From: Patescibacteria group bacterium
GTDB lineage: Bacteria > Patescibacteriota > UBA1384 > 2-12-FULL-50-11
DNA: 64,000 nt
Reading direction: 5' to 3'
Assembly: GCA_016861245.1 (NCBI GenBank)
Contig: BOKZ01000001.1
Span: forward strand, 415,746-479,745
A program made the position numbers and the translations under genes. Shown here piece by piece: positions 3,109-57,688 of this stretch (position 1 is its first letter; each line of letters starts with the position of its first letter). The notes beneath the pieces were generated by a model that was not told where the DNA came from, did not search any database, and was given only the letters and a program-made list of their open reading frames with translations.

Positions 3109-5694
3109 ATGGGGTTTTTTCAAAAAATTTTTGGTGACCCAAACGAGAAAGAAGTCAGCAAATACCAGAAGATTGTTGACGAAGTTAACGCGTTCGAACC
3201 AGGCCTCGAGAAGAAAACGGATGCAGAGTTGCGCAAACAGTCGCTTGAGCTGCGCGACAAGATCAGAACGGCAGTGACTACTGTAATTGCCGAAACTGAG
3301 CCTATTCCTGACCGCGTTGAACAAAATACAACTCGTAAAAAATTAATAAACAAGATACTTGAACCAGAATTAGCATGTGCTTTTGCTTTAGTTAGAGAGG
3401 CGTCTAAACGAACACTCGGATTGCGACATTATGATGTTCAAATTATAGGTGGCGTCGTTCTCCATCAAGGGCAGATCGCCGAGATGCAAACGGGAGAAGG
3501 TAAGACGCTAGTCGCGACGTTGCCGCTTTATCTTAATGCATTAACAGGACTTGGTGTTCACTTGGTTACGGTCAACGATTACCTCGCCCGACGTGACGCG
3601 GGGTGGATGAGTCAAATTTACGACTTTCTTGGGTTAACAGTTGGTGTAATCGGACCGCAGTTTTCTTTTATCTACGATTCCTCTTTCGATAACGGCGAGA
3701 ATGATTGGAGACTTCAGCGGCTGCGCCCAGTCGAGCGTCGCGAAGCGTACGCTGCCGACATCACCTACGGCACAAACAACGAGTACGGATTCGACTACCT
3801 TCGCGATAACATGCTTCAAGACGCAAATCAGCTTGTACAAAGAGAATTAGCATATGCTATCGTGGATGAAGTAGATTCAATTTTAATTGATGAAGCTCGA
3901 ACGCCGTTGATAATCTCGGCACCATCTTCAGAATCAGCTGGCTATTATAAAGAATTTGCCAAACATGTTAAAACATTAAAACCACAGACAGACTTTATCG
4001 TAGATGAAAAAGCCAAAAGCGCAGCGCTAACCAATGAAGGAATACAGAAACTGGAAAAAGCAGCCGGTGTCAGCAACCTATACGATCCTTCAAACGCTCA
4101 ACTTGTTCATTACGCCGACACAAGCTTAAAAGCATATGCTTTATTTAAGAAGAATAAAGATTACGTGGTTAAAGACGGACAAATAGTTATCGTTGATGAA
4201 TTTACTGGGCGGTTACTGCACGGGCGTCGATACTCAAGTGGACTTCACCAGGCGATTGAAGCTAAAGAAGGGGTGATAGTTCAAGAGGAGTCGGTTACGC
4301 TCGCTACGATTACCTTTCAAAACTACTTCCGACTCTACTTTAAGCTTGCCGGTATGACCGGAACAGCAAGCACGGAAGCAGAAGAATTCTCGAAGATTTA
4401 CCACCTAGAAGTTGTTTCGATACCGACAAATCGGCCGTCGCAGCGACGCGATTTAGCTGATGTAGTATATAAAACTGAGAGAGCAAAATTTAAGGCCGTA
4501 GCGGAATTAGTTCGGGAGTTGCAGCAAAACGGTCAACCAGTGTTAATTGGGACAGTCTCGATCGCCAAATCTGAAACGATCAGTAAACTACTGAAAAGCG
4601 AAAAAATCGAGCACCGCGTTCTTAACGCTAAATTTCACCAAAAAGAAGGCGAGATCGTAGCCGAAGCCGGACTGCCTGGGTCGGTAACGGTTGCAACTAA
4701 TATGGCTGGTCGTGGCGTCGACATCGTACTGGGCGGTCCGCCGCCGTCGAGCGACGCGCCCAAACAAGAATTTACGATCTGGGAGAAACGACACCAAGAG
4801 ATATTGGAAAGAGGGGGATTATACGTAATTGGTACCGAACGACACGAGTCGCGACGTATCGACAACCAGCTGCGCGGTCGAGCCGGCCGTCAAGGCGACC
4901 CAGGTGTTAGTCAGTTCTTTGTCTCGATGGAAGACGATTTAATGCGAATTTTCGGCGGCGATCGAATGAAGGCGATTATGGAGCGTCTCAACATCCCAGA
5001 AGACCTAAGTATCAATAACAAACTTCTCTCAAGGGCAATCGAACAAGCCCAGTCAAAGGTGGAGACACACAACTTCGATATTCGTAAACAACTAGTTGAA
5101 TACGACGACGTTATGAACAAGCATCGCGAAGCGATCTATCGGCGTCGAGAGCGGATAGTCCGATCAACGTTTAGCGACGAAGCGGCCATCGAATTTCACG
5201 ATGAGCTAGTACAGCTTTTCACTGAAGAGCAGCAAAAGTCGTACGAAGCTCGTTCGAAAGATTGGGGGACGCAGCTGAGATTTGAAGTTGAGCGAGCAGT
5301 AGTACTGCGCGCTATCGACGTACTCTGGGTTGAACATCTTAAAAACCTCGAAGATTTACGTGAGAGTATCGGGTTACAAGCGTACGGTCAGCGTGAACCG
5401 CTCGTAGAATATAAACAACAAGCCTACCGAATCTTTTCTGAGCTCCAAGATACGATTAATCGACAAATTGTTGAAATGCTTCTACACGTCAATGTCGGTT
5501 CTGCGCCCCCAGAGCAGCAGACGAATCAGAGGGTGGCGTACAATAAGCAAGAAGAAGTTACCCAGCCCCAAAGCCAAACAAACAAAATCGGTCGAAACGA
5601 TCCGTGCCCGTGCGGAGCGATCGACCCAGTGACAGGTAAGGTCTACAAGTATAAAAAATGCGGCTTAATTAACGCGCCGCATCACCGTCAGTAG
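3109..5694 (+). CDS. secA: Preprotein translocase ATPase SecA. The likely start is MGFFQKIFG at 3109; the ORF-track start at 3091 overlaps serS.
   Basis: Has a DEAD-like motor (GEGKTLVATLPLYLNAL, DEVDSILIDEARTPLIIS) and a C-terminal zinc finger (CPCGA...KKCG). Confidence 0.93.
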   Translation: MGFFQKIFGDPNEKEVSKYQKIVDEVNAFEPGLEKKTDAELRKQSLELRDKIRTAVTTVIAETEPIPDRVEQNTTRKKLINKILEPELACAFALVREASKRTLGLRHYDVQIIGGVVLHQGQIAEMQTGEGKTLVATLPLYLNALTGLGVHLVTVNDYLARRDAGWMSQIYDFLGLTVGVIGPQFSFIYDSSFDNGENDWRLQRLRPVERREAYAADITYGTNNEYGFDYLRDNMLQDANQLVQRELAYAIVDEVDSILIDEARTPLIISAPSSESAGYYKEFAKHVKTLKPQTDFIVDEKAKSAALTNEGIQKLEKAAGVSNLYDPSNAQLVHYADTSLKAYALFKKNKDYVVKDGQIVIVDEFTGRLLHGRRYSSGLHQAIEAKEGVIVQEESVTLATITFQNYFRLYFKLAGMTGTASTEAEEFSKIYHLEVVSIPTNRPSQRRDLADVVYKTERAKFKAVAELVRELQQNGQPVLIGTVSIAKSETISKLLKSEKIEHRVLNAKFHQKEGEIVAEAGLPGSVTVATNMAGRGVDIVLGGPPPSSDAPKQEFTIWEKRHQEILERGGLYVIGTERHESRRIDNQLRGRAGRQGDPGVSQFFVSMEDDLMRIFGGDRMKAIMERLNIPEDLSINNKLLSRAIEQAQSKVETHNFDIRKQLVEYDDVMNKHREAIYRRRERIVRSTFSDEAAIEFHDELVQLFTEEQQKSYEARSKDWGTQLRFEVERAVVLRAIDVLWVEHLKNLEDLRESIGLQAYGQREPLVEYKQQAYRIFSELQDTINRQIVEMLLHVNVGSAPPEQQTNQRVAYNKQEEVTQPQSQTNKIGRNDPCPCGAIDPVTGKVYKYKKCGLINAPHHRQ

Positions 5695-23468: not shown

Positions 23469-23850
23469 AGGGCCTGTCACGGCTTCGACGGGAACATTTA
23501 CAACTAAAGCACGCAAGCGGAGAGGACACGCCTTATCGTCCACAATTAACGTGCAAACGTTTTTGCAAAAGCTAAAGCTTCGATCGCGCAAGCTTTCGCG
23601 CCTAGCTTTGCTCCAGCAGTAGCGTAACGCTCACTGCCGTTTCAATAATCGATGCTACTACATTATTGAGGCGCTATATTTGTAGCTAGACGACGTCGCT
23701 GTGTCCGACGTTGTTCGAATCTCTACACTGCTCTATCGAAGTATTTCGTTTACTTCAAGCCTCGATAGCTAAGAAATTAAGTAAACTACGCTTGTAGACA
23801 CTTTAGTTGTTCGTTTTCGGACGCGGGTTCAACTCCCGCCAGGTCCACCA
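23469..23850 (+). ncRNA. ssrA: Transfer-messenger RNA (ssrA/tmRNA).
   Basis: The 5' end GGGCCTGTCACGGCTTCGACGGG matches the conserved tmRNA start (cf. GGGGCUG...UUCGACGGG). The 3' end is a tRNA-like T-arm and acceptor, GGACGCGGGTTCAACTCCCGCCAGGTCCACCA. The 5' and 3' ends pair as an acceptor stem. An internal Ala-rich tag ORF GCA AAC GTT...GTA GCG TAA (23553-23627) encodes ANVFAKAKASIAQAFAPSFAPAVA. Confidence 0.8.
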
Positions 23851-31706: not shown

Positions 31707-32671
31707 TCCAAAATCGGCACATCGACTTCCTGTAATCTTCGCCATGTTTCCGCAATAACAAAGAGAATATAAATAAGCAGTAGCACTAAACCTTCTTTGC
31801 GTGACAAGTGAGTCTTACTTTTGGCAAATAGCCAGAATAGCAGTAAGCCGATTAGGAAAAAGATAAAAACAATCCAAATCTTTTCCCTAATTATTGGGAC
31901 GCGGCCAGTTAAGATGACAAAGAAGCCAAACAGCAGTGTATTAACAGCCGCCGAACCGACGTAGTTACCAAAAGCAATTGCTTTTTCATTTCGGAGGACT
32001 GACCTGACACCGATAATAAGTTCCGGTACGTTAGTCCCGATTCCCAAAACGAGTAAACTTATCATGAACGTCGAAATGCCGAACAAATCAGAGAGGGTGA
32101 CGGTCTGACCAACCAAAAGGTCGCTAGCGAAATACATCAGGACCGCTCCGATAAGAATTTTTAGCCCATCGCCCCACCCGGCGTGATCGCCGTTAAGCAG
32201 CCGGTCGGCGATACTAGCGAGCGCGCCTTTGCGCCGACGTAGTACGTAAAACAGCACGCCGTATAGCAAAATCATAAAGACAGCCTCGACCCGGTTATAA
32301 GCACCGTCGATGCCGAATAAGACGGTCGCGAAAATTACCAGCAGGATCAGCGGTAGGTTCCGGCCAGCCAGATCTTTGTTGAGTTCAACTCCCTTGCCGA
32401 TCACGACTAAGAGCGGAATAACAAGCAAAAACAGTACCACCGATGCGCCGATCAGATTACCAATGAAGATATCGGGCTTACCTTCCCTAATAGCATTCAG
32501 GCCAACGCTGAACTCTGGAATAGAAGTTAAGAGTCCGAGAATAAAAAAGGAAACCGAGAAAGAGGACAGCTTAAAGCGATGAGAGAAAGCGCTGACGCCG
32601 TGAACAATTAACCCGGCGGCAATCCAGACCCCGAGGGCAGCGGTTATGAACAGTAAAGCCGCTTCCAGCAT
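31703..32671 (-). CDS. Ca2+/cation antiporter (CaCA / YrbG-like).
   Basis: About 10 TM helices with two alpha-repeat signatures, GNLIGASVVLFLLVIPLL and GNYVGSAAVNTLLFGF. Confidence 0.65.
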   Translation of the reverse strand: MLEAALLFITAALGVWIAAGLIVHGVSAFSHRFKLSSFSVSFFILGLLTSIPEFSVGLNAIREGKPDIFIGNLIGASVVLFLLVIPLLVVIGKGVELNKDLAGRNLPLILLVIFATVLFGIDGAYNRVEAVFMILLYGVLFYVLRRRKGALASIADRLLNGDHAGWGDGLKILIGAVLMYFASDLLVGQTVTLSDLFGISTFMISLLVLGIGTNVPELIIGVRSVLRNEKAIAFGNYVGSAAVNTLLFGFFVILTGRVPIIREKIWIVFIFFLIGLLLFWLFAKSKTHLSRKEGLVLLLIYILFVIAETWRRLQEVDVPILD

Positions 32672-35536: not shown

Positions 35537-35860
35537 TTATTTTTGACGCTGGGCTGGTTTCTCGTATGCCTCAAGAATTTGTATGATTTTTCCCTTGGTT
35601 TCATCTGAAACAATGTAGCCAGATTCGTCATAGACAATGGGTATACCGAACTGCTGGCCAATAACCTTCCAGATCTTGTCGTGTTCGTAATAATTCTCAA
35701 GTGATTCAAAAAAAGCTTTCATTCCTTCTTTGGTGCCAAGGTGCCCAGTCAGTGCGTCGCGATAGGCTTTAGCAAGAGCCATGTTATGATTCACTGCCTG
35801 TTGAGTTTTAATCAGTAGGTAGATAAGAACGACAATAATAACTAACCATAACCATGTCAT
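35537..35860 (-). CDS. Small membrane-anchored hypothetical protein.
   Basis: 107 aa. N-terminal TM (MTWLWLVIIVVLIYLLI). Confidence 0.3.
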   Translation of the reverse strand: MTWLWLVIIVVLIYLLIKTQQAVNHNMALAKAYRDALTGHLGTKEGMKAFFESLENYYEHDKIWKVIGQQFGIPIVYDESGYIVSDETKGKIIQILEAYEKPAQRQK

Positions 35861-51777: not shown

Positions 51778-51859
51778 TCTTCATTTTTATCGTTGAAAGT
51801 AGTATAGTGGACGCCCGTTTGTGGTGATAAACCAGGGCGGTGATCATTAGGAGACAAGG

Positions 51860-52201
51860 ATGACTCAAGTTCTCTCGATCCCTATTAGGGAAATTTCTCT
51901 TCAAGTACGTAGGCATTTCGGTGCCGACAACCAGCAGTTCGAAGGAACGGTCCGTGAGGGCGCGGTTGTGCTCTTCTACGACCACGACGGCGGTTACCCC
52001 GAGGGGTATTTGCTCGATCGCGATTGCGATTTCGATCCAATCAACGTCGAGTGCGGTGATGGGATGGAGGCTAGCTTCTGCAAACTGGGGGTGAGCACCC
52101 CACTCGGCCAAGCGTTGCTCAACCAGAGGGTAGGTGATAAGTTCACCGCAAAGCTGGATAGGGGGTTGCAGCGCAACATCGAAATACTCGCAGTTGGCTA
52201 G
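51860..52201 (+). CDS. GreA/GreB C-terminal-domain-only protein (Rnk-like).
   Basis: 113 aa ending in STPLGQALLNQRVGDKFTAKLDRGLQRNIEILAV, which resembles the GreA FKBP-like domain. A GGAGACAAGG RBS precedes it. GC-rich. Confidence 0.5.
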   Translation: MTQVLSIPIREISLQVRRHFGADNQQFEGTVREGAVVLFYDHDGGYPEGYLLDRDCDFDPINVECGDGMEASFCKLGVSTPLGQALLNQRVGDKFTAKLDRGLQRNIEILAVG

Positions 52202-52216
52202 CAAACAAACGGTTCC

Positions 52217-52250
52217 GGGTGACACAACGGTGTGTCGCCCATTTTTTTGT
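52217..52250 (+). terminator. Rho-independent terminator (GGGTGACACAACGGTGTGTCGCCC plus a T7 run).
   Basis: GC-rich stem-loop followed by TTTTTTT, after the Rnk-like gene. Confidence 0.6.
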
Positions 52251-52296
52251 CTATTTTATGGAAAAAAACAGGTTTGTACTGTAAAATTATCACATT

Positions 52297-52370
52297 GCGC
52301 CTGTAGCTCAGCGGATTAGAGTACTTGTCTTCGGAACAAGGGGTCGCAGGTTCGAATCCTGCCAGGCGCG
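52297..52370 (+). tRNA. tRNA-Arg (anticodon TCG).
   Basis: GCGCCTG-TA-GCTCAGCGGATTAGAGT-A-CTTGT-CTTCGGA-ACAAG-GGGTC-GCAGGTTCGAATCCTGC-CAGGCGC-G. Confidence 0.75.
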
Positions 52371-52426
52371 CAGTAGAAAAAAACAATTAACTAAATTATG
52401 ATCGACTCAGATCCAGGAGGATTTAC

Positions 52427-53053
52427 ATGCCCCTTATTATAGGAGTCGAACGCGATCGGATAATGCGACGTCTTGTGGAAAGTGGAGTGATTCTATCGGG
52501 TCACTTCGAGCTTCATTCCGGTCGTCATAGCGACCGATACCTCGATAAGCGATTATTTATGCAAGAGCTAGTAGAGGAATACGACCAATTTTGTGCGTTA
52601 ATTGCAGATCGAATCGTTACTGAGGGTTACAGCGCGATTGTAGCCCCAGAAGCGGCTGGGATGATGGTGGCGGAACGGGTTCTCGGACATATTCGATCAC
52701 GCAATTACAAAGTTGGTTACGCACCGGCGTATAAAACTGACAACGGTTTCGTGATCGACTCTAACTACAAGCGAGAGATCGCCGGACGGTGCGTCGCCGT
52801 TATCGAGGACGTAATTACGACTGGCGACACAGCGGTAAAAGCTGCTCAACTTGCCCGTTCGATGGGTGCTAGCGTCAACTCTGTTTACTGTTTGTTCGAG
52901 CGTGGAGCTCACCGTCGCATCGGTGGAATACCAATCCATCCCGTGGTTAGCATAGAGTTGCAAGATTGGACTCCGCCGTGTCGGCTATGCGAGCAGGGAA
53001 TCCCGCTTTCACCGAAGCCAATGGGCGGCTCGCAACTTGCCCTTAGCGACTAA
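52427..53053 (+). CDS. Phosphoribosyltransferase, orotate-PRTase-like.
   Basis: PRPP-binding motif VAVIEDVITTGDTAV. The N-terminal ILSGHFELHSGRHSDRYLD resembles PyrE. Confidence 0.6.
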   Translation: MPLIIGVERDRIMRRLVESGVILSGHFELHSGRHSDRYLDKRLFMQELVEEYDQFCALIADRIVTEGYSAIVAPEAAGMMVAERVLGHIRSRNYKVGYAPAYKTDNGFVIDSNYKREIAGRCVAVIEDVITTGDTAVKAAQLARSMGASVNSVYCLFERGAHRRIGGIPIHPVVSIELQDWTPPCRLCEQGIPLSPKPMGGSQLALSD

Positions 53054-53054
53054 C

Positions 53055-53082
53055 CCGCCGTTGGCGGGTACTTTTTTACTTG
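53055..53082 (+). terminator. Rho-independent terminator (CCCGCC-GTTG-GCGGG plus a T-run).
   Basis: Stem-loop then TACTTTTTTA. Confidence 0.55.
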
Positions 53083-53143
53083 CTTCTAGTATCTGGCTGT
53101 GTTTCTATTGGGTTCGAACCGATTCGTCGGTTGTGGAGGGAAA

Positions 53144-54172
53144 ATGTCTGTTATCGAGTTTGATCGCGAGCGAGCGATAGTTATCTTTCGCGATCTTGCC
53201 GCTCGGTGGCAGAATCGCGAAGCGCCCTTTAATACCGAAAAGTTTATCTCACCAGAACGGAAGTACCACCCCAAAGGAGTGACAGTGGGCTCAATCGAGC
53301 ACGCTCAGTTCCTGTTCTTTAGCGGCTGGCTGAATAGAAACGGCAAAACTGCTACCGAGCTGTTTCGTGACGCTCGAAACATCGCAGAGCAGTCACCGTG
53401 GATTATCGATCCGCGCGACTCGCGAAGCTTAGAGCGTGAGCGGTTTGACCTCCTAGAGAGGGTAATACCGTTCGCTAGCCACGAGAAGTACACTGCACGA
53501 GTTGACTGGTGGTACCGAGATTGTATGGGGCTGTTACGAGACACCTATGAGAGTGATCCGAGGAACATCTTTGTAACGGCAGAACTTTCTGGCGACTGGC
53601 GGGCTGATCGAGATTTGCTGTTGAAGCGGTTAATGTCCTTCTTTGGTACCGGACCGAAGATTGCTCAGCTAATTTTGCTTTTCTTCCAGGAAGTTGAGTG
53701 GTTGGACAATCACCAACATCGTTGGGAAGCAGTTCGTCGAGTACCGTCGATTGCGGCCGACATGTGGGTGATGAGACTCATGCGTCAACTAAATATTGTA
53801 GTAAGCTGGGAATCAGACATCTCAACAAAGATTAGTTCTGAAATCTCAGATTTTATCTGCGAGATTTGTTTTGACGAGAGTATCCCACACACTCACCTCA
53901 TTCAAGCACTCTGGCATACCGGTGCCGTGATTTGCGGTCGGATGCGACCAAAAGACCAAACGGTCGCTCGACCGTTCTGTCATAACATTTGTCCAGTTGG
54001 AAAGAGCTGTGTAGGGATCGTTCCGGCCAATTACGTAAGTAACGGCAGGCTCTCACTCTACGCTACGAAAAATGGCAAGCAACGTACCACACAGCGGCTG
54101 GCAAGTCTTCGCTACGACGAGATGAGACCGCATCCGTTAACGTTCGACGACCTCTGGCATGACCCAGAATAA
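53144..54172 (+). CDS. Divergent HhH-GPD superfamily (endonuclease III-like) DNA glycosylase-like protein with a C-terminal 4-Cys cluster.
   Basis: The HhH is LMSFFGTGPKIAQLILLFF. It is followed by VPSIAADMWVMRL, which is like EndoIII PTIAVDTHIFRV (catalytic Asp). Then come C-x14-C-x3-C-x5-C at the C-terminus. GC-rich. Confidence 0.4.
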   Translation: MSVIEFDRERAIVIFRDLAARWQNREAPFNTEKFISPERKYHPKGVTVGSIEHAQFLFFSGWLNRNGKTATELFRDARNIAEQSPWIIDPRDSRSLERERFDLLERVIPFASHEKYTARVDWWYRDCMGLLRDTYESDPRNIFVTAELSGDWRADRDLLLKRLMSFFGTGPKIAQLILLFFQEVEWLDNHQHRWEAVRRVPSIAADMWVMRLMRQLNIVVSWESDISTKISSEISDFICEICFDESIPHTHLIQALWHTGAVICGRMRPKDQTVARPFCHNICPVGKSCVGIVPANYVSNGRLSLYATKNGKQRTTQRLASLRYDEMRPHPLTFDDLWHDPE

Positions 54173-54198
54173 GCCGGCTACAAGCCGGCTATTTTTTT
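54173..54198 (+). terminator. Rho-independent terminator AGCCGGCT-ACAA-GCCGGCT-ATTTTTTT.
   Basis: Perfect 7-8 bp stem plus a T7 run. Confidence 0.7.
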
Positions 54199-54272
54199 AT
54201 TTGACACGCAATTTTTTTGACTGTACGACGAGTATAGGGGATCGTCAGTTCTTTAACCTACAGGAGGGTAAT

Positions 54273-55508
54273 GTGTCAGATTCTACAGCTATCGTTCGCG
54301 GAGAACCGGGGTTTGTCGACCCCTTCAACGTCTGTGTTTTCCGCCAAGTCCGCGATGGCGAGGAATCACACTACCAGGGGATCACGGAGCTTGCAGAGAG
54401 TATCGCCGGGAACCACTTGCTGACTCCCCTCACAATTTGTGTTTGGGACGAAGCTACAACCGAGCAGTACGCGCAACTGATCAAGCAGATCTTCAACGGC
54501 GACGGGGGCTTCGTTTTTGAAGCGAAACAGCCGTACGACGACGGAAAGAATCGAGTCTTAGTTGCCGGCCACCGTCGGCGACAAGCGCTCCATCGATTGC
54601 GGTTTGAGGGTAGCGATGTCTATCGACAAAACTTTCCCGAGCAATCAAGCGAGGAGTGTTTTCTTGATCAGTTCAGAGGAGATCGGAATCATCCGTTGCC
54701 CGGCTTTGTGCCGGCGATGATCTACACTGACATTCCAGCCGAGCGAGGCGTAAGCCTCCAGCTCGAGGAGAACATAAACCGTCGCAATATCTCGTCGCCC
54801 ACTCAAGCGAAAGCGATCAAAGGTCTTTACGATCTAAAAGCGCTGCAGCAAGGGGATGCGAGCCTCAGCATGGCTGAGTTTGCACGGCAGAGCCAGATAA
54901 GTCTCAACGTCGTTCGCGACGCGCTTCGCTTTTGCGAACTGCCGAAATCCATCCGCTACGCGGTAGAAAACGGCGCGTTCAAATGGAGTTGCGCGCTTGA
55001 GCTGACGGTGATTCACCGGATGTTGCGCGAGCGGCCCAAGCCAGACGGAACCCTGCGTGATGCGAAGGAAATCGAGTACACACTGCTCTCGCTCTCAGCG
55101 AGTGAAGCTGCCTCGAAGAATCTTCAGGCGTTTCGCAAGTACCTGCAGACTTGGGTTACTGAAGTGCTTGGACAGCTGGTAATGTTCGAAGAACTAGCGC
55201 TAACTCCTCAACAGATCGCCACCCAACTCTTGGGCGACGAGATGGTTCGAGGGAGCGCTGAGCACACGATCTTTTTGCAGCGCGTCACGTACGCGCTCAG
55301 AAACGGCTGGATCAAGGATGGTAAACTGGTGCCGCTTCATCGTCACGAAGCGAGAAAAGCGATCGCAGCGATACTCGCCGAACAGCGAGCGTTACTGCCG
55401 ATGTTGCAGCTCGTGCTCGACCAAGCAACCGCCGAGGAATTGGAAAACCTCGGCACTGACAGTCAGAAAGCGCTGGACGCGATTTCGGCTCTGGCCGTCA
55501 ATTCCTAA
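54273..55508 (+). CDS. ParB/Spo0J/Noc-like protein with a GHRR (not GERR) arginine-patch variant. It is an orphan: no parA is in the window. Likely GTG start.
   Basis: ParB N-terminal domain ELAESIAGNHLLTPLTICVW...NRVLVAGHRRRQALHRL. ParB-type HTH SQISLNVVRDALRFCELPKSIRYAVENGAFKWSCALEL. The ORF-track N-terminus (54159-54272) overlaps the previous gene and its terminator, so it is discarded. Confidence 0.55.
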   Translation: MSDSTAIVRGEPGFVDPFNVCVFRQVRDGEESHYQGITELAESIAGNHLLTPLTICVWDEATTEQYAQLIKQIFNGDGGFVFEAKQPYDDGKNRVLVAGHRRRQALHRLRFEGSDVYRQNFPEQSSEECFLDQFRGDRNHPLPGFVPAMIYTDIPAERGVSLQLEENINRRNISSPTQAKAIKGLYDLKALQQGDASLSMAEFARQSQISLNVVRDALRFCELPKSIRYAVENGAFKWSCALELTVIHRMLRERPKPDGTLRDAKEIEYTLLSLSASEAASKNLQAFRKYLQTWVTEVLGQLVMFEELALTPQQIATQLLGDEMVRGSAEHTIFLQRVTYALRNGWIKDGKLVPLHRHEARKAIAAILAEQRALLPMLQLVLDQATAEELENLGTDSQKALDAISALAVNS

Positions 55509-55548
55509 CCCGTTTCTCCGTTCGGAGAGCGGGTATTTTTTTACTTCT
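55509..55548 (+). terminator. Rho-independent terminator (CCCGTTTCTCCGTTCGGAGAGCGGG plus a T-run).
   Basis: Imperfect GC-rich stem followed by TATTTTTTT. Confidence 0.5.
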
Positions 55549-55564
55549 CTGGTATTATGCAACT

Positions 55565-55849
55565 ATGGATCAGCAGGAAAAAGACAAGATCTTAGATCGT
55601 CTCGTTGCTTCAATCGAAAAAGCTTATCATCGCCCAGGTCGCTTGATGTGGCGAGGGTTTTTAATCGGACTAGCATCGGGTATCGGTGGGACGCTCGGAA
55701 TCGCACTCGTTATAATATTGCTAACATTACTGGTCGGGAAGTTAGGCGGAATACCGGTTATCGGTGAAGCTCTGAGGGATTTGCTCGATATTATTAATCG
55801 AGGGGCGGACACACAATCGTTTATCCAGTACGTACGACTACTCGTTTAA
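55565..55849 (+). CDS. Small membrane protein (hypothetical).
   Basis: 94 aa, two TM helices (FLIGLASGIGGTLGIALVIILLTLLVG). Confidence 0.35.
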   Translation: MDQQEKDKILDRLVASIEKAYHRPGRLMWRGFLIGLASGIGGTLGIALVIILLTLLVGKLGGIPVIGEALRDLLDIINRGADTQSFIQYVRLLV

Positions 55850-56466
55850 TGGCAGATTGGATTATTGATTTTATTTCTACTGGAGGATATCCGGCGATCG
55901 CGGCGTTGATGCTGCTTGAGACAATCTTTCCGCCGATTCCGTCGGAATTAGTGGTACCGTTTGCTGGATTTGCTGCCGCCCAAGGACGTCTCGACATCTG
56001 GCTAGTTGTAATCTCTGCCTTTGTTGGCTCCGTGTCAGGAGCGTTAGTGTTGTATTGGGTTGGAAAACTGATTAAAGACGAGAAACTAGAGCAATTCGTT
56101 CAAAAGCACGGACGTTGGCTGACGTTAGATGTTGACGACTTACGGAAGTCTCGTCGTTGGTTTGATCGCTATAGTCGAACAGCGGTCCTATTTGGACGAC
56201 TCATCCCAGCGGTTCGATCTCTTATTTCGATACCAGCTGGGATCACTAAAATGAGTATTGTGTCTTTCTTTATATTCTCAGCCATCGGTACCGCTGTCTG
56301 GTCCTCGGTTTTAGCTTGGGCGGGGTACTTACTCGGCCAAGATTACGAGCGAATTCGCCATATTATAGACCCAGTAACTTCGATTGTTGTTTTACTAGTT
56401 GTTGTGATCTACCTATATCGACTTATTTTTCCTAGGCGTAAATCTGGATCAGCTGTAACAGATTAG
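55849..56466 (+). CDS. DedA/SNARE-associated family membrane protein.
   Basis: AALMLLETIFPPIPSELVVPFAGFAAAQG is the DedA signature. Confidence 0.65.
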   Translation: MADWIIDFISTGGYPAIAALMLLETIFPPIPSELVVPFAGFAAAQGRLDIWLVVISAFVGSVSGALVLYWVGKLIKDEKLEQFVQKHGRWLTLDVDDLRKSRRWFDRYSRTAVLFGRLIPAVRSLISIPAGITKMSIVSFFIFSAIGTAVWSSVLAWAGYLLGQDYERIRHIIDPVTSIVVLLVVVIYLYRLIFPRRKSGSAVTD

Positions 56467-56491: not shown

Positions 56492-56563
56492 GGGGCATTA
56501 GTTCAGTGGCAGAACAACGGACTCTTAATCCGTGTGTCAGTGGTTCGAATCCACTATGCCCCA
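56492..56563 (+). tRNA. tRNA-Lys (anticodon CTT).
   Basis: GGGGCAT-TA-GTTCAGTGGCAGAAC-A-ACGGA-CTCTTAA-TCCGT-GTGTC-AGTGGTTCGAATCCACT-ATGCCCC-A. Confidence 0.75.
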
Positions 56564-56633
56564 CAGAGTAAATTCGAACCAGTTCGACTGCGACTCGCCG
56601 AACGGCGAGGAGAAGTACTGAGCGAAGCTCAGT

Positions 56634-56752: not shown

Positions 56753-57688
56753 GTGGTGGAAAAGCTCCCCAGAATCGTAGTTGAGAAGCAAGGGTCGCAT
56801 TCCGAAAACCCGCCGAAGGGTATCGAAGTGCCGATCCGTGACGCATTAGCGCGTCACGGCTTCACGGAAGGTTGCTGGTGCATGAAAGTTCGCATGGTGC
56901 ATGCTCGAGGCGAAAGCCATAGCTACCGCGGTGCGCACTTCAAGGGCCTTCGGAATTACGCTCGTGCTCGTAACGTCATCGACGTTGTGTCACAGCCGGG
57001 CGCCGCACATACGGCTTTCCTAGCAGACCTGATTGTGCCGGACTGTTACGACGCAACTCACGTTCTCAACACGGTTCGACAGATCAACACCCTTGATCCG
57101 AACAAAGACGAGGACCTGGAGATGCTCAAGAAAGCATCGCAGTTCGACGTCGGCGCTTCTGCTAAGAGGCGCAGCAACGAACCCATCGCGTCAGTCCGTC
57201 GAAGCAACGAAGCGCGCCAACAAAGGATCGCTAAGTTCCTCGGTAAGCCAAAAAACATCGACGCAGTCGGAGTAGTGATCCAGCGAGAATCTCTCAACGG
57301 TTCTGTTCCGATCAGCGTCCTGGATAAGGCGATCCGGGAAACGCTGCCGTTTCAAATCTCAAGAGATGAGCTGGCGAGTACGCGAGCGATCTTCGTGTTG
57401 AATGAGGATCTTTTGCAGCCGGGTGATGGCGTGTACCACCTTTCCGAACGCGGCCAACTCTGGATCGAGAGCTTACGTCAGCGTGAGCGCGACAACGAAG
57501 CGTTAGCGCAGCAAATGCAGCAGCAGCTTCTTCGGCGGCAGCTTCAGAAATGCGAACGCAGCCTTCGACAGTTCGACGAACGGGTTGAGGCCGAGCGATT
57601 AGCGAGGCTCGAGACTATCCAACAACTCAAGTCACAGCTCGGGATCTTCGAGCAAGGAAGTGAAGAACATGTATTGGTGTTGAGCTAA
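56753..57688 (+). CDS. Hypothetical protein, GC-rich, with a C-terminal Gln/Arg-rich coiled-coil. GTG start with a GGAGG RBS.
   Basis: 311 aa. GGAGG 7 nt upstream of GTG. C-terminal ALAQQMQQQLLRRQLQKCERSLRQFDERVEAERLARLE. Confidence 0.4.
   Translation: MVEKLPRIVVEKQGSHSENPPKGIEVPIRDALARHGFTEGCWCMKVRMVHARGESHSYRGAHFKGLRNYARARNVIDVVSQPGAAHTAFLADLIVPDCYDATHVLNTVRQINTLDPNKDEDLEMLKKASQFDVGASAKRRSNEPIASVRRSNEARQQRIAKFLGKPKNIDAVGVVIQRESLNGSVPISVLDKAIRETLPFQISRDELASTRAIFVLNEDLLQPGDGVYHLSERGQLWIESLRQRERDNEALAQQMQQQLLRRQLQKCERSLRQFDERVEAERLARLETIQQLKSQLGIFEQGSEEHVLVLS

Follow-up and report, generated by a model that had tools for sequence, protein, structure and literature searches.

A 64,000-nt stretch of the genome of a Patescibacteria group bacterium (contig BOKZ01000001.1; the whole stretch is called the window below, and coordinates are window positions unless another locus is named) carries at 54273-55508 the gene of a ParB-like protein and, upstream of it at 53144-54172, a gene whose product is predicted to take the HhH-GPD fold of DNA glycosylases. 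Judged from sequence comparison, the ParB-like protein holds as an orphan, non-partition ParB as far as the loci show, and the second gene, here called the partner, has not been seen apart from a ParB-like gene of the same family. The features of the two genes are listed below, with residues of the ParB-like protein counted from the GTG at 54273.

53144-54172, + strand: partner gene, a 342-aa sequence orphan with a predicted HhH-GPD glycosylase fold; start at the ATG at 53144, not the GTG at 53099
53645-53761, + strand: helix-hairpin-helix of the partner, G168-T-G-P-K172-IAQ through Asp206, with the putative Lys/Asp catalytic pair; K and D invariant in 10 homologues
53933-54010, + strand: four-Cys cluster of the partner, C264-x14-C279-x3-C283-x5-C289, a candidate [4Fe-4S] loop; invariant in an 8-member alignment and mostly conserved in distant homologues
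54172-54200, + strand: terminator-like hairpin (the hairpin itself 54172-54190) and T-run between the partner gene and the ParB-like gene
54201-54206, + strand: TTGACA box, possible -35 element of the ParB-like gene's own promoter; ATTTGACA is invariant in the window and the related loci L005 and L001, with diverged intergenic DNA around it
54262-54275, + strand: ribosome-binding site AGGAGGG (54262-54268), 4 nt ahead of the GTG, and the GTG start codon
54273-55508, + strand: ParB-like gene, 411 aa, GTG start, TAA stop; an open reading frame (ORF) with an orthologue-supported start
54345-54353, + strand: Q25-V-R27, counterpart of the ParB QPR motif (Q52 and R54 of Myxococcus xanthus ParB); aligns to the QPR of Spo0J, ParB, and Noc
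54387-54437, + strand: box I (C-motif region) ELAESIAGNHLLTPLTI, aa 39-55; S43 is kept, and His48 stands where M. xanthus ParB has the cytosine-contacting G73
54555-54599, + strand: box II VLVAGHRRRQALHRL, aa 95-109; His100 (CAC, 54570-54572) replaces the hydrolysis Glu, and both Arg are kept
54600-54707, + strand: lineage-specific insertion between boxes II and III, with a degenerate Cys/His knuckle remnant and one Cys remaining
54768-54782, + strand: box III E166-N167-I-N-R170 (ENxxR); aligns to the ENLQR of Spo0J and ParB
54861-54977, + strand: ParB-type helix-turn-helix (HTH), aa 197-235; aligns to the HTH of Spo0J, ParB, and Noc
55050-55505, + strand: C-terminal domain peculiar to the family, about 150 aa; conserved throughout the close clade, helical in the AlphaFold2 (AF2) model at a predicted local distance difference test score (pLDDT) below 50
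55517-55543, + strand: terminator-like hairpin and T-run after the ParB-like gene, from a terminator scan

The mechanical long ORF at this place runs from 54159 to 55508 (+), and its first 38 codons precede the GTG at 54273. Read from the ATG at 54159, the frame shares its first bases with the final 14 nt of the upstream gene (stop codon 54170-54172) and then crosses the terminator-like hairpin. The original prediction had moved the start to the GTG, and related loci agree with it. In an alignment of the intergenic DNA of the window with L005 (85% protein identity) and L001 (53%), a GGAGG and a start column are common to all (GTG in the window, TTG in L005, GTG in L001), and the orthologous DNA upstream of that column is non-coding, with the terminator and the conserved TTGACA box. 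Among the close database homologues (n = 6, 5 of them full length), 4 of the 5 full-length sequences begin in or near the GTG column, and the fifth (P0001) repeats the over-long ORF call. The corrected start is right, and the protein therefore comprises 411 aa at 54273-55508. With a dN/dS (the ratio of nonsynonymous to synonymous substitution rates) of 0.026 against the 94%-identical locus L006, the gene is functional and under strong purifying selection.

L005 has a GC-rich inverted repeat and T-run comparable to those between the two genes, in the corresponding position, and L001 has them less clearly (by eye on the alignment). The TTGACA box is a possible promoter element of the ParB-like gene; a consensus promoter scan called no complete sigma-70-like site at 54201-54206. 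Across window positions 52200-55900, a terminator-like hairpin stands behind each of four successive genes, the GreA-like, phosphoribosyltransferase, partner, and ParB-like ones; the scan gave 12 sites where shuffles predict 3.6. The arrangement suggests that these genes are transcribed mostly singly.

The original prediction had assigned the protein to the ParB family from box I and box II peptides and from a ParB-like HTH following the N-terminal domain (ISLNVVRDALRFCELPKSIRYAVENGA, aa 209-235 of the translation). The quoted peptides are all present, and boxes I, II, and III and the HTH are collinear with those of known ParB proteins. Taken as a single sequence, the protein resembles ParB only just beyond chance. 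TIGR00180 is matched at E 9.6e-7 with 28.7 bits against a cut-off of 58.45, covering aa 150-233 only, and the Noc model TIGR04285 scores 18 bits against a cut-off of 315, so that the profile hidden Markov model comparison proposed as a check leaves both curated thresholds, chromosomal ParB and Noc, missed. The ParB-like PHROG phrog_6218 is matched at E 1.2e-5, and phmmer against PDB sequences reaches Spo0J at E 0.09. Pfam ParB_N and HTH_ParB gave no match to the single sequence at E<=1; its sole Pfam match, DUF7119 (E 0.08), was not accepted.

The ParB identity is settled by profiles, that of the clade matching Spo0J and that of the family matching Spo0J, ParB, and Noc. A 7-sequence clade profile matches Thermus Spo0J at E 5.5e-4, with collinear pieces corresponding to box I, box II, and box III plus HTH. 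An exhaustive profile search of 1.84 billion representatives recovered 459 proteins at E<=1e-3, of which 195 also pass E<=1e-10; most are about 400 aa long. A family profile built from 71 of them matches Spo0J, Bacillus subtilis ParB, M. xanthus ParB, and Noc at E 1e-18 to 1e-15, collinear through QPR/box I, box II, box III, and HTH. Taken one by one, 35 of the 71 are recognized by Pfam ParB_N and 48 by HTH_ParB. The top Foldseek matches of the AF2 model are all ParB, Noc, Spo0J, KorB, or PadC, and the match to the sulfiredoxin fold is short and limited to the shared core. With box I, box II as GxRR, and box III as ENxxR found in this order, as in the ParB/Srx superfamily (Pfam PF02195 clan), the sequences identify a true, though distant, member of the clamp-type ParB-CTPase branch, which probably arose from a chromosomal-type ParB, as Noc did.

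Several parts of the protein are family-specific. Relative to canonical ParB, the N-terminal domain carries two insertions of about 30-35 aa. Between boxes II and III, most family members have a Cys/His knuckle, GC-x2-C-x8-16-C[FY]xxH, which is probably a zinc site; the clade of the window protein reads GSDVY...ECF here and has lost the first two Cys. The 71-member alignment shows N167 without variation and Q25, R27, and E166 with hardly any, and box III as a whole is invariant in the close clade. For the C-terminal helical domain we infer a role in dimerisation or partner binding.

Pocket residues were mapped through profile alignments, with the residue list of M. xanthus ParB taken from PMC13229309 and its numbering checked against chain offsets. 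The correspondences are as follows.

M. xanthus ParB Q52 (hydrolysis): Q25
R54 (phosphate): R27
S68 (cytosine): S43
G73 (cytosine): H48; Asp in the Berkelbacteria orthologue
E93 (hydrolysis): H100
R95 (phosphate): R102
E126/N127 (box III): E166/N167

Six of the 8 pocket positions are kept, and the two replaced are the catalytic Glu and one base-contact Gly. Nucleotide binding by the ParB-like protein would be expected, because the residues that hold the triphosphate and Mg (Q25, R27, R101, R102, E166, and N167) are all retained. The hydrolysis residues of M. xanthus ParB are Q52 and E93 (PMC13229309), and Caulobacter crescentus ParB E102A binds cytidine triphosphate (CTP) and closes its clamp on DNA with no CTP hydrolysis, giving a locked clamp (PMC8367383). 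His100 occupies the position of both C. crescentus E102 and M. xanthus E93. Since the box II Glu is a His, as is one base-contacting Gly, nucleotide hydrolysis is predicted by analogy to be slow or absent. The E102A and E93A proteins resemble the ParB-like protein in that the same box II Glu is changed and the Gln, Arg, and Asn contacts are kept. They differ from it in being laboratory Ala mutants, whereas the His here is natural, conserved within clades, and recurs at least twice in the family.

This last point bears on the weight that the original prediction had given to GHRR in place of GERR. The GHRR box itself is confirmed in 6/6 full-length close sequences, the window included. The change from Glu to His nevertheless has less diagnostic value than it had been given: in the 71-member alignment, box II reads GERR in 47 members, GHRR in 21, which fall into two or more distinct clades, GRRR in 2, and GETR in 1. 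GECR is found in two further loci, L016 and L017, and the same partner gene also accompanies proteins with GERR and GECR boxes. The box II substitution is a recurrent family trait and no singular oddity.

The features by which a partition ParB would be recognized were sought in the protein family and in the surrounding DNA. The ParA-binding motif [LFI]G[KR]G[LFI] (defined as LG[KR]GL in PMC12704722) occurs in 0 of the 71 family members, the window protein included. The 64-kb window holds neither an ORF with a ParA-type Walker A (KGGxGK[ST]) nor a second ParB, and its P-loop ORFs are only ABC ATPases, a DEAD helicase, and BipA. No ParA-type Walker A was found in about 275 kb of non-redundant related loci, and no parA lies within 6-10 kb of the gene in 13 distinct loci. 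The absence of parA, on which the original prediction had insisted, is thus borne out for the window and the related loci. Its argument against a classical partition role likewise stands as far as these loci show, given the missing ParA-binding motif, the lack of an adjacent parA, and the curated ParB and Noc thresholds that were missed.

The search for parS palindromes that had been proposed was run within the window, where canonical parS with <=3 mismatches gave 4 matches against 1.9 expected, a number equaled in 15 of 100 shuffles and so not above chance. A window-wide palindrome census found no recurring 14-16-bp palindrome, and a local inverted-repeat scan found no operator-like palindrome near the genes; a non-canonical site may still exist. 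Two palindromes elsewhere in the window may be recorded. The near-parS sequence GGTTTCATCTGAAACA at 35597-35612, between divergent ORFs, has 3 mismatches to the consensus and is indistinguishable from chance. The sequence AAAGCAWWTGCTTT forms two perfect 14-bp palindromes, at 4129-4142 and 31971-31984, with half-sites AAAGCA-WW-TGCTTT (0.07 expected from shuffles, for a pattern picked post hoc), and both copies sit inside ORFs.

The partner protein appears to be a sequence-orphan branch of the HhH-GPD glycosylases, visible solely through structure prediction, in which both lobes of the fold are recognizable. Pfam gave no family in 8 homologues beyond sub-threshold helix-hairpin-helix motifs, which fall at the same place as the motif listed above, and membership in the NCBIfam nth, mutY, and ogg families was missed; the NCBIfam MutY model reaches E 0.089 in the Cys region only. 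Lys and Asp are reported as the only invariant residues among HhH glycosylases (PMC9881137), and their spacing is 34 in the partner, against 32 in StQng1 (PMC9881137). A weak hhalign alignment with an Escherichia coli EndoIII sequence entered by hand puts K172 on EndoIII K120 and D206 on D138. The Fe-S loop of EndoIII and MutY has the spacing C-x6-C-x2-C-x5-C, compared with C-x14-C-x3-C-x5-C in the partner, where the four-Cys cluster may hold an Fe-S cluster. Because of the invariant Lys/Asp pair and the four-Cys cluster, sequence and model together make the partner a probable base-excision enzyme. The gene is under strong purifying selection, with a dN/dS of 0.047.

More interesting than the substitution is the conserved pairing of the two genes. 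The partner adjoins a ParB-like gene of the family in 8/8 lineages and was never seen alone, and three metagenome loci retrieved with the partner alone as query all carry the ParB-like gene (3/3). The pair is found in the window, L005, and L006, in the Berkelbacteria loci L001-L004 and L007, where it is relocated relative to the PfkB and GreA-like genes, and with a GRRR box in L014 and L020. It occurs in both gene orders, with the ParB-like gene first in L011, L015, L016, and L017 (boxes GERR or GECR). Identity falls to about 31% for the partner and to about 20-25% for the ParB-like protein, and neighbourhoods differ, the flanking genes including those for adenylosuccinate synthetase, an ABC transporter, a thioredoxin-like protein, and UvrC; in L011 (7061-7975), uvrC lies directly downstream of the pair. 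In L016 (7941-9987), two tandem partner paralogues follow one ParB-like gene. The GRRR-clade pairs lie at L014 6586-17278 and L020 4172-7320, and that of L014 stands beside serine recombinase and type IV secretion system (T4SS) genes, which suggests that the GRRR-clade pair is carried on an integrative conjugative element (ICE) in some genomes of the candidate phyla radiation (CPR).

About half of the sampled ParB-like genes have no partner. Six lack it within the available DNA, and for a seventh, in L018, only the downstream side could be judged, the contig ending 499 nt away upstream. These seven genes are placed as follows.

L008: clpB neighbourhood
L012 6702-10772: dinB-X-lexA-xth
L018 500-2549: S24 peptidase gene behind the ParB-like gene; upstream side cut by the contig end
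L019 6001-7263 and L023 3373-4620: second GHRR clade, in ftsA-ftsZ-X-nrdR order in two unrelated contigs
L021 9573-11272: beside an ogt-like gene and HU
L022: unknown neighbours

The ftsA-ftsZ-X-nrdR placement hints at a Noc-like link to cell division. Family members also lie repeatedly near DNA-repair and SOS genes (dinB-X-lexA-xth, the S24 peptidase gene, the ogt-like gene, uvrC). Since the partner always has a ParB-like gene and the converse holds only sometimes, the partner depends on the ParB-like gene and not the reverse, a pattern expected of an accessory effector that relies on a platform protein.

A further neighbour in the window is a pyrE-like phosphoribosyltransferase gene at 52427-53053, below all curated cut-offs and with a weak PADLOC match to ShosT (E 4.9e-4). 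It lies directly upstream of the pair, a position not conserved elsewhere. A role of the pair in nucleobase salvage together with this phosphoribosyltransferase was set aside, as the enzyme's gene lies at a distance of 4 kb in L001 and is missing from the remaining pair loci.

Close homologues of the ParB-like protein occur in only two GTDB species genomes, an unclassified metagenome-assembled genome (99% identity) and Candidatus Berkelbacteria, and a wider relative comes from Candidatus Woykebacteria. The traceable family members are uncultured Patescibacteria (CPR). The family appears to be chromosomal and CPR-restricted, judged from the sampled origins rather than from a full taxonomic census. 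In the phage and plasmid collections, tblastn found no match for the ParB-like protein or the partner, and in IMG/VR nothing matched the partner, with a single weak match for the family, of the generic ParB N-terminal kind. A phage or plasmid origin was rejected on the ground that these collections are essentially empty of matches. In 13/13 loci (the window, L001, L005, L008, L011, L012, and L014-L020), GC content is higher in the ParB-like gene or the pair than in the flanking DNA, with an excess of 0.6 to 13 points whatever the genome GC. Because of this regularity, horizontal transfer was judged unlikely as the cause of the high GC, and the excess looks like a protein-composition effect rather than the mark of recent transfer. 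In the searchable literature we found no description of the family, the GHRR box, or the pairing of a ParB with a glycosylase.

The ParB-like protein can be compared with several characterized systems. It shares with chromosomal ParB/Spo0J the collinear QxR, boxes I-III, and ParB HTH, and these proteins are its best matches both among the sequences of solved structures and in Foldseek. It differs from them in lacking the ParA-binding motif and an adjacent parA, in the His at box II, in the two N-terminal insertions, in the C-terminal domain, and in a score under the curated cut-off. With Noc, KorB, VirB, and BisD, it has in common an N-terminal domain plus HTH used outside partition, and the ICE-like context of the GRRR-clade relatives recalls BisD (PMC12704722). 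It belongs to none of these families, its conserved neighbour is a glycosylase-like enzyme, and no membrane-targeting or KorA-type partner is evident. On the enzyme's side, the partner differs from the HhH-GPD glycosylases (EndoIII, MutY, Mig, AGOG, OGG) and from Qng1/DUF2419 in having no Pfam or NCBIfam family match and in its obligatory link to a ParB-like gene, and from EndoIII and MutY in the Cys loop spacing given above.

There is precedent for a ParB-fold protein serving a DNA base-modifying enzyme. One case is DpdA-DpdB, where DpdB has no sequence relation to the ParB-like protein. Another is phage 5mYOX, beside which a ParB-fold protein is encoded that the base-modifying enzyme needs (PMC13229309). 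The 5mYOX-associated ParB is phage-encoded and lacks a DNA-binding domain, whereas the ParB-like protein keeps its HTH and is chromosomal in CPR, and the enzyme classes differ.

The window contains other features of some interest outside this locus. A 113-aa protein (ORF 51860-52201) matches only the C-terminal part of GreA and Rnk, and the surrounding stretch, 51826-52213, cannot be aligned to the otherwise 94%-identical L006, from which a local replacement is concluded. Just after tRNA-Lys (56492-56564), a 311-aa ORF at 56753-57688 with about 55% GC has no family match in Pfam, NCBIfam, PHROGs, or PADLOC. L006 has the segment and the otherwise syntenic L005 does not, so that it may be an insertion. 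ARAGORN calls a transfer-messenger RNA (tmRNA) at 23470-23850 with the tag peptide DATTLLRRYICS, which lacks the usual hydrophobic ending of the ...LAA type; either the tag frame may be miscalled or the tmRNA may be unusual.

The reading that we favour, with confidence that stands about level with doubt, is that the ParB-like protein is an orphan, Noc- or KorB-style, ParB-type nucleoside triphosphate-gated DNA-binding protein, probably with slow hydrolysis, working with the HhH-GPD-fold partner. It starts from the homology, fold, motif states, missing parA and ParA-binding motif, conserved pairing, and purifying selection that were observed, and from these we infer nucleotide binding, slow hydrolysis, physical coupling of the two proteins, and DNA as the substrate. 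The protein would bind nucleotide and use it to gate DNA binding, instead of acting as a ParA-driven partition adaptor, and slow or absent hydrolysis would give a long-lived nucleotide-bound state. Bound to or clamped on DNA, it could recruit, position, or license the partner, which would act in DNA repair or in the surveillance of modified bases. In this respect the general idea of a DNA-repair or modification role in the original prediction gains support, from the invariably linked upstream gene with the HhH-GPD fold, and the sulfiredoxin, DndB, and DpdB part of it does not hold.

A more specific version, which we offer as a tentative possibility, is a hitherto undescribed two-protein DNA-surveillance module of Patescibacteria. 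In it, a ParB-derived clamp would load on the chromosome and deliver or activate a dedicated Fe-S HhH-GPD glycosylase, for clamp-guided base excision or for base exchange like that of DpdA-DpdB, with the clamp impaired in hydrolysis in some clades (GHRR, GRRR, GECR).

Several points weigh against cooperation between the two proteins, or against the biochemical details proposed for them. The sample of 8 lineages is small, and 4 of them were found by searching with the partner itself. The two genes of the window have a terminator-like hairpin and a probable promoter between them and are not demonstrably one operon. The AF2 model of the ParB-like protein is moderate (mean pLDDT 60) and unreliable in the C-terminal domain, and in the partner the Cys spacing is non-canonical and the Cys region has a pLDDT below 50. 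Base specificity of the ParB-like protein is uncertain, nucleotide specificity being unreadable from sequence (PMC12704722). His100 could also retain catalysis, or the site could be vestigial, as the nucleotide site of the 5mYOX-associated ParBs may be (PMC13229309).

The separate transcription signals also enter into a different account, which we consider rather unlikely, in which the protein is a stand-alone ParB-type clamp for regulation or nucleoid organisation, comparable to KorB, VirB, BisD, or Noc, and its adjacency to the partner reflects regulation of the partner gene or shared locus ancestry. The architecture of an N-terminal domain plus HTH with no ParA motif is that of Noc, VirB, and BisD (PMC12704722), both genes end in a terminator of their own, and the conserved TTGACA box precedes the ParB-like gene. 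The partner-less half of the sampled family, with its two members in ftsA-ftsZ-X-nrdR suggesting a division or nucleoid link, points the same way, as do the GRRR-clade pairs beside serine recombinase and T4SS genes, as on a conjugative element. Against a stand-alone clamp, the partner adjoins a ParB-like gene in all 8 lineages and the pair survives order inversion and relocation, which the simple adjacency of a regulator and its target accounts for less well; nor was an operator-like palindrome found near the genes.

Two further accounts concern the protein itself. A highly diverged but true chromosome-partition ParB, with parA and parS elsewhere in the genome, would suit the nearest relatives among solved structures (chromosomal Spo0J and ParB), the recognizable boxes I-III and HTH, the housekeeping neighbourhood, and the strong purifying selection. 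We regard it as very unlikely in view of the ParA-binding motif missing from all 71 aligned members, the lack of parA in the window and near the gene in the 13 loci, the absence of canonical parS above chance, the lost hydrolysis Glu, the score far below the TIGR00180 cut-off, and the replacement of the canonical C-terminal domain by a different helical domain of about 150 aa. The idea of an enzymatic ParB/Srx member, either a nuclease, a sulfiredoxin-like protein, or a DndB/DpdB-type ATPase, goes back to the original prediction and is highly improbable. DndB, DpdB, and Srx gave no match at E<=1 in Pfam, NCBIfam, or PADLOC, PADLOC has nothing for either the ParB-like protein or the partner, and the neighbourhoods showed no dnd, dpd, or 7-deazaguanine genes. 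Both Arg of GxRR, box III, and the full ParB HTH are retained, as in clamp-forming CTPases, and since the nearest neighbours in sequence and fold are DNA-clamping CTPase ParBs (ParB, Noc, Spo0J, KorB, PadC), membership in the DndB, DpdB, or Srx families, with their DGQHR- or GCHR-type box, was rejected.

Orphan proteins of the ParB-CTPase fold are widespread, and almost none has an assigned function (PMC12704722). For this one, the strictly linked enzyme partner provides a concrete functional hypothesis. If the two proteins do not cooperate, the family is one more orphan ParB paralogue of modest interest. If the surveillance module is true, segregation and transcription control would be joined by a third kind of use of the ParB CTPase fold. 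The natural series of Glu, His, and Arg at box II, along with the GECR of L016 and L017, could show the purpose of CTP hydrolysis in this fold. Patescibacteria have small genomes and reduced repair repertoires, and the pair is a candidate DNA-repair or surveillance device in these organisms.

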